This document shows, one piece after another, positions 40,608 to 47,166 of a DNA stretch of 64,000 bases (position 1 is the stretch's first letter; every line of letters starts with the position of its first letter). A model generated the notes under the pieces. The model ran no database searches, had not been told where the DNA came from, and saw only the letters and a program-made list of their open reading frames with translations. Made by a program: the position numbers and the translations under genes. Source of the stretch: Spirochaetaceae bacterium (GTDB lineage: Bacteria; Spirochaetota; Spirochaetia; DSM-2461); NCBI GenBank assembly GCA_051531975.1, contig JAOPTT010000004.1, forward strand, positions 96,001 to 160,000, read 5' to 3'.

Positions 40608-40675
40608 ATAGGGAAAATCCCTATATGAAATGAAGAGTCTGCCTCATATACGGATAAACTATCGGATGGTATATT
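40608..40675 (+). promoter_or_regulatory. Copy 1 promoter: palindrome box 1 (40608-40624), box 2 ATGA-N10-TCAT (40630-40647), extended -10 TGg-TATATT (40670-40675)
   Basis: Read directly; spacing identical in all three copies. Confidence 0.75.
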
Positions 40676-40681
40676 TAGAAC

Positions 40682-40818
40682 ATATTAAAAAGTAATAAAA
40701 ATAAAGTTAATTAAAAAAAGGTTTTTGTTTTTATTTAAAAAAGTAAGATTAAAGTGAATTGAAAAAAGTAAAAGTTTATTTAAAAGTTGAGGGTTTGTAA
40801 TGGTACAAACCCTTTTTT
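40682..40818 (+). ncRNA. Putative small RNA, copy 1 (~137 nt; 7 AAAGU motifs; no C in the body upstream of the terminator)
   Basis: Lies between the -10 box and an intrinsic terminator; no RBS-led ORF; TSS inferred. Confidence 0.65.
40790..40818 (+). terminator. Intrinsic terminator, copy 1
   Basis: AGGGTTTGTA-atgg-TACAAACCCT + T-run. Confidence 0.85.
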
Positions 40819-40826
40819 ATTTATAA

Positions 40827-41420
40827 TTAGCCTCTATAATTTAGAGCAGATTTAAAATTATGTTTGTTAGTTATGAATATTTGTTTTTTGAATGATATAA
40901 AGTCAATATCCCCATCTAGTTTAAAAACTTCTTTTTCATCAAGATCTACTAACATATTATCAGTTAAAACAGTGTTTGCAAATTGTCTAACTTTTTTTGT
41001 ATTCCAAGCGGCTGAAACTTTTCTAACTGAGTATAATTCCTGATCATCAAATATTAATCTTGCTACATAAAACCAAGATCCTAATAGTTCATCAGGCGTT
41101 ATTGCTAGTTCGGGTTTAGGTGTTGAATTTATAGTCTGAAGAATTTCATCAAAGTCAGTTTCACTATTTTCTATAACTAGGGCGTTATTTGGTTCTTCGT
41201 TATTTTCTTTTTTTAGATCTGTAATACTTTTTATATAATAAATTTTATTTGTAGTTATTCCTTTTAGCTTAAAATGTAGATCACGTTCTAATTTTAGTTC
41301 TTTAATACTGTATTTTGCTTTTTTATCTCTAAGGGTTCGTTTGACTATAAAAAAGGTTAATTTTGCATCATGCCAGTTTACCTCTTTTAGATTGTCTAAT
41401 ACTTGATCCATTTCTTGCAC
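40827..41420 (-). CDS. Kiwa KwaB-like (DUF4868) protein, C-terminally short, no kwaA partner
   Basis: FFIVKR...AKYS, ETDF..I, ELLGSWFYV, VRK.S..W.TKK, LVDL...VFKLDG.IDF, K.NF.SALNYR match my recollection of DUF4868 proteins; start re-assigned to GTG 41420, 6 nt from a GGAG RBS. Confidence 0.62.
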   Translation of the reverse strand: MQEMDQVLDNLKEVNWHDAKLTFFIVKRTLRDKKAKYSIKELKLERDLHFKLKGITTNKIYYIKSITDLKKENNEEPNNALVIENSETDFDEILQTINSTPKPELAITPDELLGSWFYVARLIFDDQELYSVRKVSAAWNTKKVRQFANTVLTDNMLVDLDEKEVFKLDGDIDFISFKKQIFITNKHNFKSALNYRG

Positions 41421-41461
41421 TTTTTTCTCCAAACTTTTTTTATATACTAATAACCCTTACT

Positions 41462-41488
41462 ATATCGGCATAAATACTTATAACTAAA
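41462..41488 (-). promoter_or_regulatory. Possible sigma28 (FliA) promoter for the KwaB-like gene
   Basis: Minus strand TTTAGTTA-N11-GCCGATAT vs consensus TAAAGTTT-N11-GCCGATAA. Confidence 0.5.
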
Positions 41489-41713
41489 TAGGGAAAATCC
41501 CTATGTAAAATGAATAAATGACCTCATATACGGATATCAGATGTGATGTTATATTTAAATCATATTAAAAAGTTAAATAAATAAAGTTGATTAAAAGAAA
41601 GTATTAAGAAAAAAGTTTAAGTTTTATTTAAAAAAAGTAAGAGCAATGTTTATTTCAAAAAGTATTTTTTAATTAGTATTCTAAGGGAATGTAATGGTGC
41701 AGTCCCTTTTTTT
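41488..41713 (+). repeat. Dispersed intergenic element, copy 2
   Basis: Box 1 41488-41504, box 2 41510-41527, TATATT 41550-41555, terminator 41683-41713. Confidence 0.93.
41562..41713 (+). ncRNA. Putative small RNA, copy 2 (~152 nt; 6 AAAGU motifs)
   Basis: Same architecture as copy 1; terminator AAGGGAaTGTA-atgg-TGCAgTCCCTT + T-run. Confidence 0.62.
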
Positions 41714-41831
41714 ATGCCCTTTTTCTATAATTAATCACACTGACAAATTAAACTTATTCGGTTGTCTATAACATTTACAAAAGCCTTAAAGAAATTACTT
41801 ATTCAAATCTCCTATTAGTGGTTGTTTTTTG

Positions 41832-41860
41832 TTGACAGCGAGCAATTGCTCACTTAGTAT
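41832..41860 (+). promoter_or_regulatory. sigma70 promoter with a palindromic operator in the spacer
   Basis: TTGACA-17-TAGTAT; spacer contains GAGCAATTGCTC (41840-41851). Confidence 0.75.
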
Positions 41861-41914
41861 ATTGTAGAGCTCTATCTCTACAAGGTATAAAACCAATATT
41901 AGGAGAAACATAAA

Positions 41915-43921
41915 ATGAAAAAATCTACAAAAAGAGGATTAATTATCCTTGGAGTGATTATCTTATTAATAACATATGTTGGAGTAACTGTTTCAGTAGA
42001 TCTAAAAAATAACAATGCTATTGTAAAGATTCCACGTGATAAACCTGAAAGTGGTGAAGGGAGAGGTAGTGTTGGTGATGTCCTTGGTCAGATTATTAGG
42101 GACGGAGAGTACACCTCTAGTATGATTAGAACCATTGATTATTTAAATGGTCGACATGACTGTGCTGATTTCCGACTTCCTGTAGCTATGCACCTATTAT
42201 ATGAATTCCCTGATAAACTAACAAATGAAGATCTTACTGATTTAAAACAGGCAGTTTTAAACTTTAAATATTGGATGGAAGACCCAGGTTATGACAGTAT
42301 GTGTCACTGGAGTGAAAATCATCAGATTCTTTTTGCAACAGGAGAATATTTAGCCGGTCAGTTATATCCTGATACAGTTTTTACTAATACAGGAGAGAAG
42401 GGGTCATGGCATAAAGAAAGAGGTAAGTCCCGGGTTTTAGCATGGCTTGAACAACGTTGGAACCATGGGTACATAGAGTGGAATTCCAATACATATTATA
42501 AAGAGGACATCGCACCACTTGCAGCACTAATTGAGTTTTCTGGGGATGATGAGGTACTAATAAAAGCACAGATGGTTATGGATCTTATGATGTACGATAT
42601 GGCAAGCCAATCCTTTAAAGGGGCATTTGTTTCAACTAGTGGACGATCCTATGAAACTAAAAAAATGGCTGGTCATCAATCATCCATGAAACGTTATACT
42701 GAGATTTTAAGTGGATATGACGTAGATTCTAATTTTCCAGAAGACATTTATGGTGGTAACATGGATATAACCTTCATGACTTCTAAGCGATATGAAATTC
42801 CTAGTGTTTTCAAAAAAATAGCCAGAGATGATAAAGATACTAGAATTATTAAAGCATCTACAGGTTTAGATTTAACAGAGCTTAAAGGATATGATCTGAT
42901 AGGACAGGAACCACACCAGATTTTAATGCAGTGGGGAATGGAAGCCTTTAGTAATCCTGAGATTGTTAATAACTCTATTAAATATATTGAAGATAATGAA
43001 ATGTTTAAAAACTCAGACCTTTATGCCTTTAAGGACTTTAACTTCAAGATACTTAAAAGATTAAACTTAATACCAACTATAAGTAAGCTGATAAATCCTC
43101 AATCAAACGGTGTTGCAATCCAGAGAGCTAACCAGTATCTATATAAAACCCCCTATTATAGTATCTATACTGCTCAGGCATATCACCCAGGTTTTTATGG
43201 AGATCAACAACATATTGCAGGTGTTACATTATCTAATGATCTTAGTGTTTTTAATGCACACCCAGCAGTTGATGAGGGTGATCGTGGACCTAATGGCAAC
43301 TCGCCTAAATACTGGGTTGGCCAAGGTCACTTTCCTCATACTGTTCAACATGAGAATGTTAACCTATCTATCTACCGGACTCCTAAAAAGAAAGGTATGA
43401 TGGAGGCAAAGCTTCTTGATTATACCCATGGATATTTTCCAGAGATACAATTTGATGAATCCTCCATCGAGGGCAACTTAGCTTTTGGTAAGTTAGGAGA
43501 TGCTTATATCGCTTTTATAACGACCAACGATCTTAGTTACAAAAAGTATGAAGAGATTACTCGGGATTGGCAGGGTGAGAATTATGATCTAATCCAACCA
43601 GGGAAAGAGGTTTACTGGATTACGGAAGCATCTGATGTAACTGTTGATGGTTCATTTAGTACTTTTAAATCTAGAATTAAAGAACAAGCAAAAACTATAA
43701 CCTACGATGGTAAAAAAATCTCTTATACCTCTATGGGTAGAGAGTTAAACCTAGAGTTTAAAGGTGACTTTAAGGTAAACGGCGAGGTTATGGATCTTAA
43801 TTACGATCGTTTTGATTCTCCATATATTCAGGCTAACCGAACACCAACTGAGATGACGTTTAAGTTAGGTGATAAAGAGTTATACCTAAACTTTAAGAAG
43901 ATGATTCGAGAATATAACTAG
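41915..43921 (+). CDS. Membrane-anchored conserved hypothetical protein (possible polysaccharide lyase/heparinase-like fold)
   Basis: 668 aa, N-terminal TM anchor, R.DCADF, WSENHQI, EWNSNTY, GDQQH motifs; AGGAG RBS; fold is inference. Confidence 0.6.
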   Translation: MKKSTKRGLIILGVIILLITYVGVTVSVDLKNNNAIVKIPRDKPESGEGRGSVGDVLGQIIRDGEYTSSMIRTIDYLNGRHDCADFRLPVAMHLLYEFPDKLTNEDLTDLKQAVLNFKYWMEDPGYDSMCHWSENHQILFATGEYLAGQLYPDTVFTNTGEKGSWHKERGKSRVLAWLEQRWNHGYIEWNSNTYYKEDIAPLAALIEFSGDDEVLIKAQMVMDLMMYDMASQSFKGAFVSTSGRSYETKKMAGHQSSMKRYTEILSGYDVDSNFPEDIYGGNMDITFMTSKRYEIPSVFKKIARDDKDTRIIKASTGLDLTELKGYDLIGQEPHQILMQWGMEAFSNPEIVNNSIKYIEDNEMFKNSDLYAFKDFNFKILKRLNLIPTISKLINPQSNGVAIQRANQYLYKTPYYSIYTAQAYHPGFYGDQQHIAGVTLSNDLSVFNAHPAVDEGDRGPNGNSPKYWVGQGHFPHTVQHENVNLSIYRTPKKKGMMEAKLLDYTHGYFPEIQFDESSIEGNLAFGKLGDAYIAFITTNDLSYKKYEEITRDWQGENYDLIQPGKEVYWITEASDVTVDGSFSTFKSRIKEQAKTITYDGKKISYTSMGRELNLEFKGDFKVNGEVMDLNYDRFDSPYIQANRTPTEMTFKLGDKELYLNFKKMIREYN

Positions 43922-43940
43922 ATATATCAATTGTTGATAT

Positions 43941-43963
43941 AAGGAGCCCCTTGGGCTCCTTTT
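43941..43963 (+). terminator. Intrinsic terminator
   Basis: AAGGAGCCC-ctt-GGGCTCCTT + TT. Confidence 0.75.
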
Positions 43964-44022
43964 AAATATAGAATAATAAATTTTCTAGACGGAACTTGTA
44001 TTACGAAAGTAGTGTAGATTTA

Positions 44023-46200
44023 TCACTCAACATCAAAATAAGATATTTCAGATATAATACTAGACACCATCTCTTTATTGGTTAAACTAACGTTCATTAT
44101 ATCATCTACAGCAGTTTTTATTTCAGAAGTACTCGATGTAATTTCATCTATTTGAATAGTGCTGTCCTCTGCCATCTCTTTAAGTTTTATCACTTCGGAT
44201 AGTACAAGAGAGCTTCCAGCTTGGATCTCAGAGGCTCCGCCTTTAACAGTGATTGCAATCTGGCTCATATGATCCAAAGATTCTAGAATCTGCTCGCTGC
44301 CCTGCTTCTGTTCAATAACTGCCATTCTAACTTCTTCACTTCTTCCATTAACTGTTGATATCATAGTTTGAATATTTGTAAAACTATCTACAGTATCTTT
44401 TGAACTTATAACTATATCATTAATCAATATATCAATGTTTTTTAGAATATCTGAAACTCCACGACTCTGTTGAGTTGTAGACTCTGCTAATTTTCTAATT
44501 TCGTCAGCAACAACACTAAAACCTTTTCCTGCTTCTCCAGCATGAGCAGCTTCTATTGCTGCATTCATTGCTAATAGATTTGTTTGACTTGCTATATTGT
44601 TAATGATCTGGTTCGTCTGCATTAGTTTTTTTGACTCCTCAGCTATAGTTTTTATCTGATTACTACTAGTGTCTACTTTTTGCTGACCCAATTTACTTGC
44701 TTCTGTTAAATCCACAGTTGATTGATAAACCCTGTCCATATTTTCTGAAACACTAACTATTGATCCAACCATCTCTTCTATTGAGCTTGAGGATTCTGTA
44801 ATTTGATTATTTTGTTTGTTAATAGATTCATTTAAAGATTCAATATTACTGGAAATTTCTGTTACAGCAGCAGTTACCTCCTCAACACTATCTAGTTGTG
44901 ATCTGAAATGACCATTTATTGAGGTTATATTTGATGATACTAAAGATATTGAGGCACTAGATTCTTCAGAACTTGAAGACAGAGTGTCGCCAACTTCTCC
45001 TAATGATATACAACTACTTTTATTTTTTCCTATAATTTGAATTAACTTTTTAACCATTCCCATAAATGATATTGAGAGATCGCCAAGTTCATCATTCTTA
45101 AAAAGAGGTTTAGCTCCATGTTCCGTATCAAAATCTACTTTTAGATCACCATTAGCTACTTTTGTTACTACATTTTTGATAGCTAATATAGGTCTATAAA
45201 TATCCCTAATAATATAAATGCTAAAAAGTACTAAGCAAGTAAGTATAATTGTAATAGAGATGATATATAACCACATAGATCTTTTTGCCAATGATTTAAA
45301 GCTAGTTATAGTTAAATAGAAGTCTTCAATTAGTTGCAGTTCTACATCAAGCATAAGATTAATCTTTTTTGACATAAGATCGTACCAATGAGTTGGATCA
45401 ATTTTACCAAGTGTATCAGAACCCGCTTTTTCAAAGGCTATATCTCTTAGCCTCTGTACTTCTATTACAACATCTCCACTTAATGATTCATTATATATTT
45501 TTTGTTGGTGTGGTTCAGCGTCCGAGAGAAAAACATTAATAAAAACATCTTGACTTACTACGAGATTATTAAAGGTTTTGAAACCTTCAAAATCCAAACG
45601 GTCTGCGGCAAAGGCACTACTTAGAACAGCTCTCTCAATTCCTGCCCTCTCTTTTCCCATAAGAAAATTACTATATGCATTTAAACTTTTTCTAATTTCA
45701 ACAGTAGGAGTATTATATCCAATATAACGGATCAGATCTAAAATCATTTTATGCAAGTCTGTATACCATTTGATTCCTACGTCTATGCTTAAGTTATCTT
45801 TATTGATACTTTTTCTATGACTAATTAATCCTTTAGTTTCAGCTATAAAATTATTTACTTTCGTATTAAATTCTGACCCAAATGATTCCGTGTCAATTTC
45901 TGATAAATAAGTTATTAATTCATTAAGCTTTTTATCAGTGAGAAGTCTCTGTTGTGGTAGTTCTGATGTAAACTTAAGCCCAGCGCTACCTATAAATCCG
46001 GCAGTCATACCACGTTCTTTCTGAGATTCATGTACAAAAGCGCTCATTTTTACAGATATTGTAGTTAATATTTCCGAGTTATTAACATCCCTTAAGTGAG
46101 TTGTTAGATTAGTTATAGTGATAGCTGAAAAAAATAGAATTATTATCATTGGTAATATTGTAAGTAAAGATATTTTGGATTTGATTGTAAACCGTTTCAT
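44023..46200 (-). CDS. Methyl-accepting chemotaxis protein with NIT (nitrate/nitrite-sensing) domain
   Basis: VHESQKERG...GF and [12 protein letters not shown] motifs; [21 protein letters not shown]. Confidence 0.9.
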
Positions 46201-46277
46201 ATGGATTTCCTTGTAATAACCTCTTATGATATTGGTTATTATTACTATTATAAGCTAAATAATAGGTTGTTACAAAT

Positions 46278-46901
46278 CTAATGAGCTTTTTTCATTTTAT
46301 TATTCTTATAAGTCTGTTGAAGTTTTACCATTTGTCTGAATATTGATATTAACCCATCGGGGTTGATATCCTTATTACATACTCCAGATTCCTGTAGCTC
46401 TTTAATTAAGAAATAAGTTGACTCAATTGTTGAAAGGCAAAAATTTGCAGGCTGTTTTTTTATTTCAAAAGCCGATCGATACTCTTTTTTAAATGATAAT
46501 TTGGGCAGATTCAGAAGTGATGGGCTTCTTGTTATCATTTTTTTTGCAAATGACCATGTTGCATCAATTAAAAAAATCAATAATTCCCTATCTTCCCCAT
46601 ATTTCTTAAAATCAAATGTTTGAGCAAAATGTGCATCTTCATCGGGGTAGAGAACCATAGGAAAATATTCGGGACTGTTTATTAGTTCTTGTACTCTTAT
46701 GTTATTATCAAATGTTTCATCTATAATTATTTCTGAATTAACTATTGTTAAACTTGCTAACCGACCAGTACCTGTTTTTTGTTTATAAGCTTCTTTGGGA
46801 TGCATTAAAAATACAAACTTAATATTAGGCTCAAAAGGTTCTATATATTTGCAATAACAAGTTTTAATGGGCCTATAACATTTGTAACACTTCGTAATCA
46901 T
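46278..46901 (-). CDS. DTW-domain tRNA-uridine aminocarboxypropyltransferase (TapT/YfiP family)
   Basis: CxxC...CxC, MHPKE, TGRL, LYP, IDATW, LSTIES. Confidence 0.88.
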   Translation of the reverse strand: MITKCYKCYRPIKTCYCKYIEPFEPNIKFVFLMHPKEAYKQKTGTGRLASLTIVNSEIIIDETFDNNIRVQELINSPEYFPMVLYPDEDAHFAQTFDFKKYGEDRELLIFLIDATWSFAKKMITRSPSLLNLPKLSFKKEYRSAFEIKKQPANFCLSTIESTYFLIKELQESGVCNKDINPDGLISIFRQMVKLQQTYKNNKMKKAH

Positions 46902-46934
46902 TTAAGCAGTCTACCATAATTTCCCTATTTATAA

Positions 46935-47159
46935 ATAGGGAAAATCCCTATATAAAATGAAGAGTATGCCTCATGTCCTAAATTAGAATGTGGGTGTATA
47001 TTTAGAACATATTAAAAAGTTATATAAATAAAGTTAATTAGAAAAAAGTTTTAAGAAAAAAGTTACTTATTTATTTAAAAATGTAAGAGCAAAGTTTATT
47101 GAAAAAAGTAAAAATTTATTTTGAAATCTAAGGGTCGTAACAGTACGATCCTTTTTTTT
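46935..47159 (+). repeat. Dispersed intergenic element, copy 3
   Basis: Box 1 46935-46951, box 2 46957-46974, TATATT 46997-47002, terminator 47130-47159. Confidence 0.93.
47009..47159 (+). ncRNA. Putative small RNA, copy 3 (~151 nt; 6 AAAGU motifs)
   Basis: Flanked by two minus-strand genes, so the + strand promoter and terminator serve no CDS; terminator AAGGGTCGTA-acag-TACGATCCTT + T-run. Confidence 0.68.
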
Positions 47160-47166
47160 GTCCATT

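Follow-up and report, generated by a model that had tools for sequence, protein, structure and literature searches.

Background

To our knowledge few sequence codes of bacterial protein-sponge RNAs are known, namely GGA for CsrA, A-rich motifs for Hfq/Crc and the hairpins bound by ANTAR proteins. CrcZ and CrcY, which titrate Hfq-Crc, are transcribed from a sigma-54 promoter and carry an AAnAAnAA motif, and the ANTAR-binding RNAs present tandem hexaloop hairpins in hosts that encode an ANTAR protein. Type III antitoxin RNAs of the ToxI type consist of structured repeats situated directly upstream of the cognate toxin gene, and the csRNAs and Qrr, like the FopS RNAs, serve as models for paralogous small RNAs (sRNAs) acting by base-pairing. 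In the Gac/Rsm system, according to excerpts of PMC11611043, GacA activates the sponge sRNAs RsmY and RsmZ, which present GGA motifs, through a palindromic upstream box. Excerpts of PMC11697453 describe the FopS RNAs of Bacteroides as carrying a seed and repressing translation by base-pairing, with RbpB as an antagonist of FopS, and those of PMC6736767 describe BpuR, a PUR protein of Borrelia, as binding purine-rich RNA and altering protein levels. Here we report that a 64,000-nucleotide stretch of DNA from a Spirochaetaceae bacterium (contig JAOPTT010000004.1, positions 96,001 to 160,000; henceforth the window) contains three copies of a cassette, in which a two-site promoter and an intrinsic terminator enclose a nearly C-free body of reiterated AAAAGU motifs. 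The layout is Gac/Rsm-like, but the element is not a member of the CsrB family. Sequence comparisons indicate that these cassettes are a real, undescribed family, which likely encodes sRNAs: no such system was described in the excerpted text of the matches listed for sponge RNAs in spirochaetes, and no description of the family was found among the literature listings covered.

A conserved promoter-to-terminator cassette in four spirochaete genomes

The three copies represent one cassette, with 72-78% identity over about 230 nt, and comprise the following features. In all copies the predicted transcription start was placed from the -10 box, 7 nt past it.

40608-40624 (+): copy 1, putative activator site 1, the palindrome ATAGGG-AAAAT-CCCTAT (sequence; column conservation)
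40630-40647 (+): copy 1, putative activator site 2, WTGAR-N8-CTYAT, adjoining the predicted -35 position (column conservation)
40670-40675 (+): copy 1, -10 box TATATT (conserved columns TAWWAT at offset 58-63)
40682-40788 (+): copy 1, body from the predicted start, with 7 AAAGU and 0 C (counts)
40790-40818 (+): copy 1, intrinsic terminator hairpin and U tract (covariation in 20 homologues)
41488-41527 (+): copy 2, putative activator sites 1 (41488-41504) and 2 (41510-41527) (sequence comparison)
41550-41555 (+): copy 2, -10 box TATATT (column conservation)
41562-41682 (+): copy 2, body with 6 AAAGU and 3 C (counts)
41683-41713 (+): copy 2, terminator hairpin and U tract (covariation, folding)
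46935-46974 (+): copy 3, putative activator sites 1 (46935-46951) and 2 (46957-46974) (promoter matrix, sequence)
46997-47002 (+): copy 3, -10 box TATATT (column conservation)
47009-47129 (+): copy 3, body with 6 AAAGU and 3 C (counts)
47130-47160 (+): copy 3, terminator hairpin and U tract (covariation)
40827-41432 (-): truncated kwaB-like open reading frame (ORF) between copies 1 and 2, given as context and lying outside the RNA gene (PADLOC)

Searches recovered 23 complete cassettes in the four genomes of one marine spirochaete genus, perhaps Thiospirochaeta, namely the genome of the window (G000, with four copies, of which the fourth is shorter and lies on contig C3) and three others designated G001 (five), G002 (six, and one more cut by a contig end) and G003 (eight). 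The statistics given below use the 22 copies found first, a divergent copy of G001 (L107) found later being left out. The description in the first-pass annotation of a multicopy, activator-type gene with a reiterated motif is thus borne out by a promoter-to-terminator cassette conserved in four genomes.

When positions are counted from the second G of GGAAAATCCC (position 0), site 1 of the promoter, (A)TAGG-N7-CCTAT, occupies -4 to 12 and is joined by a conserved AAAW linker to site 2, WTGAR-N8-CTYAT, at 18-35. Site 2 is followed by a weak -35 element, the -10 box TAWWAT (58-63) and the predicted start, an A at position 70. Pairwise identity among the 21 ungapped copies reaches 94% in the right half of site 1 and 82%, 84% and (in the -10 box) 75% in the other boxes, the values for the spacers being 32% and 43% and that for the flank 35%. 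Still further upstream, at a distance of about 23 bp, there is a third, degenerate half-site (16 of the 22 copies have C at -14; in copy 3 an extra CCCTAT stands 23 bp upstream of site 1), so that CYYAT-like half-sites recur every two helical turns. In the terminator, aligned over 20 of the 22 copies after two poorly alignable ones had been left out, 97% of the cells are paired and 7 of the 10 pairs show double changes, a level reached in none of 500 shuffles; its sequence is conserved among the cassettes and absent among 176 predicted gene terminators of G000.

Outside the genus the cassette was not recovered. In cassette form the promoter pattern was not detected in the 34 other genomes of the family (4/38 match, in addition to one chance match inside a gene), and a profile search of 141 genomes of the class gave strong matches in G000 and G001 only, three weak matches proving on inspection not to be cassettes. 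The promoter pattern was found in 16 stretches of a species collection, of which the 9 in Spirochaetales records are all cassettes and the 7 others lack the repeat body; in metagenomes it occurred in 9 stretches, none with a repeat body, and viral contigs gave no match to the strict pattern. A pattern joining a motif pair to a terminator matched 7 of 401 genomes of the phylum, about the control level, though this is a weak test which also missed true G000 copies. One small metatranscriptome of the same sample contained no contig on the cassettes and carries no weight either way.

The genes flanking the cassettes are mostly unlike between copies and genomes, with little synteny; the seemingly syntenic cross-genome cases are two, G1_e with G2_f, and G2_a/b with G3_d behind homologues of xylose isomerase. 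In a tree of the copies, most forks of which are unresolved, the four of G000 group together (96/97 with two others), a pattern that suggests birth-and-death evolution of these compact units.

The repeat body

The motif and C counts listed above agree exactly with those of the first-pass annotation, as do the positions of the motif G in copy 3 (47019, 47033, 47048, 47062, 47094 and 47108), and copy 1 is indeed shorter by one unit, seen as a 14-nt gap against the other copies. The proposed enrichment is also real: the three bodies hold 19 AAAGT as against 1.9 expected from mononucleotide and 7.8 from dinucleotide shuffles, with none of 1000 shuffles reaching 19. Over both strands of the 5.46-Mb genome, five or more AAAGT per 110 nt occur at four places, the three window copies and a tandem repeat on contig C2, and three or fewer C are found in just 14 of 9210 intergenic segments of 110 nt. 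The 22 bodies together (1764 nt; A 917, T 597, G 193, C 57; 63% purine) contain 75 AAAGT as against 33.8 in dinucleotide shuffles, of which 0/1000 were as high.

The body is built from units of the form A(3-8)-G-U-W-D-A-U-U, and runs of four or more A continue into GT in 60 of 98 cases, compared with 310 of 3900 in the intergenic background. Of the 57 intervals between successive AAGT, 22 measure 14 nt and a further 9 measure 15 nt (14-15 nt in 31/57), a spacing off the helical period of DNA. In 15 of 21 copies the first motif G stands at +11, and in 12 of 21 the last one lies 21-23 nt ahead of the terminator; these end positions stay fixed while the number of units varies from 0, in one decayed copy, to 7. 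The linkers between motifs differ from each other, unlike those of a fresh tandem repeat, ACTTT has no occurrence on the sense strand of the 22 bodies, and the first 20 nt at the 5' end are the best-aligned part.

No ORF common to the copies was found in the 22 bodies, and Rfam gave no match near the gathering score in this region of the window and none in 18 homologous loci. The remark that GGA is missing holds for the three bodies and is uninformative, because its absence is at chance level (0.24 expected; 756 of 1000 dinucleotide shuffles also lack it) and three GGA occur in the 22 bodies. Likewise, the statement that stable pairing is scarcely possible went too far, since A-U and G-U helices give a fold energy of about -9 kcal/mol; what stands is that this energy is no better than that of shuffles (mean z +0.3 over 22 bodies), that the predicted folds differ from copy to copy and that no conserved fold was detected in the bodies (best pair covariation z 2.5 among many pairs tried). 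A mini-hairpin model (X-AUU...AGU-Y) was rejected, as the z of 2.5 for its position -11/+2 (41 versus 33 of 57 units) is not significant after many comparisons.

A repeated short motif with a fixed period and a variable number of units, the lack of a conserved fold or ORF, the presence of paralogues and a candidate dedicated regulator (see below) together give these genes the anatomy of titration RNAs. We regard it as the best reading, with about an even chance, that they titrate a single-strand RNA-binding protein, which would recognize A4-GU-(U/A).

A candidate activator

Of the 18 GerE-bearing proteins of G000 one, a NarL/FixJ-type regulator (C3:28315-28989; Response_reg and GerE domains) encoded behind a membrane HisKA_3 kinase, has close matches in all three other genomes (compared with 18 relative loci). 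Its orthologues are 83% identical in G001, 83% in G003 and 78% in G002, the one other match in 41 genomes being 34% in a distant genome. In the family the regulator occurs in 4/38 genomes, with the same distribution as the cassette. Together with its nearest matches in a protein collection it makes up a tight clade (68-89%), beyond which the values drop to about 40%. Across the four genomes the recognition helix is invariant and the DNA-binding domain as a whole 91-97% identical. Kinase, regulator and an RNase II-family gene stand in one row in all four genomes (G000:C3:26496-30196). The RNase II-family gene itself is found family-wide, in 3 of 5 other genera behind a different, hybrid kinase. 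We judge from these comparisons that this regulator, together with its HisKA_3 kinase, is probably the activator of the cassettes. Another NarL-like regulator (C6:256366) was rejected as a rival candidate, being present in 6 cassette-less genomes of other genera and not found in G002 and G003.

Independent support for the type of regulator comes from an unrelated Ignavibacteriae record (L135/L156), in which a kinase-NarL pair is directly followed by the two-site pattern and then by a receiver gene, the recognition helix reading SKTVENH there and SKTVDNH in the regulator of the genus. The same TAGG-N7-CCTAT / TGAG-N8-CTYAT layout precedes protein genes in unrelated records from Ignavibacteriae, Bacteroidetes and metagenome contigs (L135/L156, L124, L139, L140), and is possibly a widespread promoter type of the NarL subfamily. 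It may also resemble the NreC box, for which no published statement was found.

In G000 a matrix of the promoter retrieves the four cassettes only (37.7-42.3 bits; next score 17.6), and in the 66% of G001 covered its hits are three copies from the training set, the divergent copy (19.6) and a single site in front of an ABC exporter operon (38.8). This last (G001:C1:288588-288749, minus strand) is a full two-site promoter without a repeat body, upstream of genes for an adaptor, an ATPase, two permeases and an outer-membrane factor. As the G000 orthologue of the operon (C3:115835) lacks the site and shows three TTTACA repeats 11 bp apart instead, the exporter promoter in G001 may have been co-opted.

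Search for a binding partner and for mRNA targets

The titration reading was confronted with the leaders of 377 orthologous genes of G000 and G001 (again covering 66% of G001), where Shine-Dalgarno, -35 and -10 words were recovered as positive controls, AGGAG and TTGACA ranking first. Several observations weigh against this reading. The motif is not conserved in these leaders: among hexamers AAAAGT takes rank 619 of 650, and among pentamers AAAGT takes rank 311 of 489. In G000 leaders it does not peak at any position and is not clearly biased to one strand (593 versus 544), an 11-nt composite is no better conserved than permuted controls in 826 orthologous transcripts (2/15 versus a mean of 0.09), and in coding sequence the motif is neither avoided nor favoured, with no codon-independent bias. 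No partner protein was found, and no RNA-binding candidate tracks the cassette among 41 genomes (PUR in 41/41, RRM in 37/41, cold-shock proteins in 16/41). One copy, G3_c, has nearly lost the motif. As to the regulator, its co-occurrence with the cassette within a single clade is weak evidence, because any genus-specific gene would show the same distribution, and the matrix scores of the cassettes are partly circular, since the matrix was trained on them.

Because the leader, transcript and coding tests are all null, we consider it unlikely that the partner is a CsrA-like repressor acting on conserved sites in leaders; a chaperone or decay factor of general function is a likelier partner than a repressor specific for certain leaders. 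G000 encodes CsrA (in a flagellar fliW operon), one RRM protein, two cold-shock proteins, SpoVG, KhpA, a PUR/DUF3276 protein (C10:4336-4788) and Rho, which is present in all four genomes of the genus. Hfq was not found in those four genomes (0/5 searched; five controls positive; G002 81% and G003 71% complete). Autoregulatory motif arrays were not seen in the leaders of csp, rrm, csrA, PUR, khpA or spoVG. The protein-sponge reading of the first-pass annotation therefore stands as regards the anatomy of the RNAs and fails as regards any named partner: RRM, cold-shock, KhpA, SpoVG, PUR and CsrA proteins are all encoded, and none of them follows the cassette. By analogy with BpuR, which binds purine-rich RNA, the PUR/DUF3276 protein is a reasonable candidate, but it is present in 41/41 relatives.

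Some other stretches of G000 recall the cassette bodies. On contig C2 (about 653470-653200, minus strand) a second nearly C-free stretch with AAGTTAG/TTAG repeats forms the leader of a small gene and shares the core AAGUUA with the cassettes; a common partner was rejected, the G001 homologue of that gene having no repeats. The most cassette-like mRNA leader seen is a short, C-poor one with four AAGT(T/A)A before a small membrane-protein gene (C10:55877-56239, minus strand), whose product may be PspC-like. We also observed a stand-alone Cas2-like protein, 83% conserved between L222:197-487 and G000:C18:35694-35984.

Comparison with described regulatory RNAs

Set against excerpts of PMC11611043, the cassettes recall Gac/Rsm in comprising several paralogous genes for likely sRNAs, with reiterated, putatively protein-binding motifs, a palindromic upstream box and an intrinsic terminator. 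The co-distributed NarL/FixJ-type pair would correspond to the Gac/Rsm response regulator; it is predicted to act through that box and to have the sRNAs as most of its direct output. The cassettes differ in having AAAAGU at a 14-nt period instead of GGA in stem-loops, in lacking a conserved body fold and an Rfam match, in the two phased sites that adjoin the -35 element and in that the search of mRNA leaders brought up no conserved counterpart of the motif. Multiple GGA, stem-loop display and an Rfam match were each looked for and none was found, which places the cassettes outside the CsrB/RsmXYZ family.

With CrcZ/CrcY they have in common an A-rich, weakly structured RNA, a reiterated motif and, as predicted here, two-component induction, but the promoter is sigma-70/NarL-like, the motif is A4GU and the RNA is much shorter; as no Hfq was found, they are not CrcZ-like. 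Unlike ToxI, they lack a common downstream gene, and a ToxN search gave no match, nor did its controls. The terminator loop alone resembles the ANTAR-bound motif, and an ANTAR search was blank, as were its controls. Dispersed paralogous sRNA genes in one lineage and the presence of an RRM protein recall FopS, but here the units are short and repeated and no conserved complementary sites were found at translation starts (66% of G001 covered), and we do not regard the cassettes as FopS-like. The setting of BpuR is matched by a PUR-domain protein encoded in a spirochaete and by the purine content of the bodies; against a BpuR-type partner speak its presence in all relatives and the lack of any AAAAGU specificity in the excerpts of PMC6736767. 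The general feature of protein-titrating sRNAs is seen, namely that a free-standing non-coding gene repeats a motif more often than the background would give.

Genomic setting of the window copies

The kwaB-like ORF (PADLOC KwaB, E 5.8e-43, model positions 3-198 of 312), related to the Kiwa defence system, breaks off at about model position 200 right at the terminator of copy 1, and a genome search found no further pieces of kwaB in G000. Copies 1 and 2 form direct repeats around this ORF, and a pair in G003 likewise surrounds a gene for a 245-aa protein, so that the cassettes may be points of recombination or insertion. A variant copy (corresponding to 40723-40788 of the window), which joins copy-2-like and copy-1-like parts, lies on a contig of low depth (7x versus 40x) and probably comes from a related strain. 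Further downstream, 41915-43921 (+) encodes a protein of 668 aa that carries a hydrophobic segment at its N terminus and has no Pfam or PADLOC match.

Alternative explanations

The fixed position of the first unit at +11 and the good alignment of the 5' end could also be accounted for if the cassettes were regulator-driven, paralogous base-pairing sRNAs that used their 5' end, AUAUUAAAAAGUUAAUU, to bind U-rich sites in mRNAs or a second sRNA. FopS is a precedent for multicopy sRNAs acting in this manner (excerpts of PMC11697453), and for the same reason had been misplaced in the first-pass annotation as a precedent for titration. Pairing by a seed that has a single G and lacks C is weak, though, and conserved complementary sites did not emerge from the leaders (ACTTTT ranks 498 of 650; composite complement 0/14). 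Given moreover that Hfq was not found and that ACUUU-rich intergenic RNA is absent save for the antisense of the copies and two 4-motif stretches, we regard base-pairing as unlikely. We also doubt that the RNAs are decoys or substrates of a ribonuclease that cuts or stalls at A-tract-GU, thereby shielding other RNAs or yielding 14-nt pieces. The spacing is very regular, and the candidate kinase-regulator pair stands directly upstream of the RNase II-family gene in 4/4 genomes, but that gene occurs family-wide, in 3 of 5 other genera behind other kinase genes, and the motif is not depleted in coding sequence.

A-tracts and AT-rich DNA are bound by nucleoid-type or repressor proteins, and the repeats might act as a binding or bending array at the DNA level, be it for a repressor road-block, for a nucleoid protein or as a recombination site, with transcription being incidental. 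The unrelated, variable loci and the two pairs flanking a cargo gene would suit such a role; it is nonetheless improbable, since the period is out of helical phase, the repeats always lie exactly between the promoter and a terminator with conserved RNA pairing, and ACTTT never occurs on the sense strand. Little synteny, the grouping of the G000 copies, the abutment of copy 1 on a truncated kwaB and another C-free repeat expansion in G000 that is absent from a relative would all be compatible with the view that promoter and terminator form a mobile or duplicating unit, and that slippage produced the nearly neutral AT-rich filling between them. This explanation is weakened by the conservation of motif, period and distances to both ends in four species in which the promoter spacers have diverged to background, as well as by the unlike linkers, and we consider it quite improbable too.

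Proposed mechanism and implications

On the titration reading, the following course of events is proposed. The cassettes, in which the putative activator sites, the -10 box, the repeats and a terminator with covariation are conserved over 23 copies from four genomes, would very probably be transcribed as non-coding RNAs of 85-175 nt. The phosphorylated regulator would, as we think probable, bind the phased CYYAT half-sites 22-23 bp apart and thereby activate a sigma-70 promoter with a weak -35 element. In the weakest step each 14-nt unit might serve as one binding footprint, with titration capacity set by the copy number times the number of units, while the low C content would limit folding of the RNA and might in addition help it to avoid Rho. 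Taken as a whole, we tentatively suggest, as a possibility somewhat short of an even chance, a Gac/Rsm-like cascade built independently from new parts, in which the whole output of a genus-specific NarL-type system would be 4-8 AAAAGU-repeat RNAs that titrate a protein or nuclease without known sponges (PUR, KhpA/B, cold-shock, RRM, SpoVG or an unnamed one).

If this is true, the cassettes would define a new sponge code with a 14-nt footprint and a case of convergent evolution of the layout of a kinase, a regulator and many sponge RNAs. The family constitutes a natural bait, as it offers 23 variants, a sharply defined motif of fixed period and a candidate for the regulator upstream, and identification of the partner would give sequence specificity to a poorly understood RNA-binding protein of spirochaetes.

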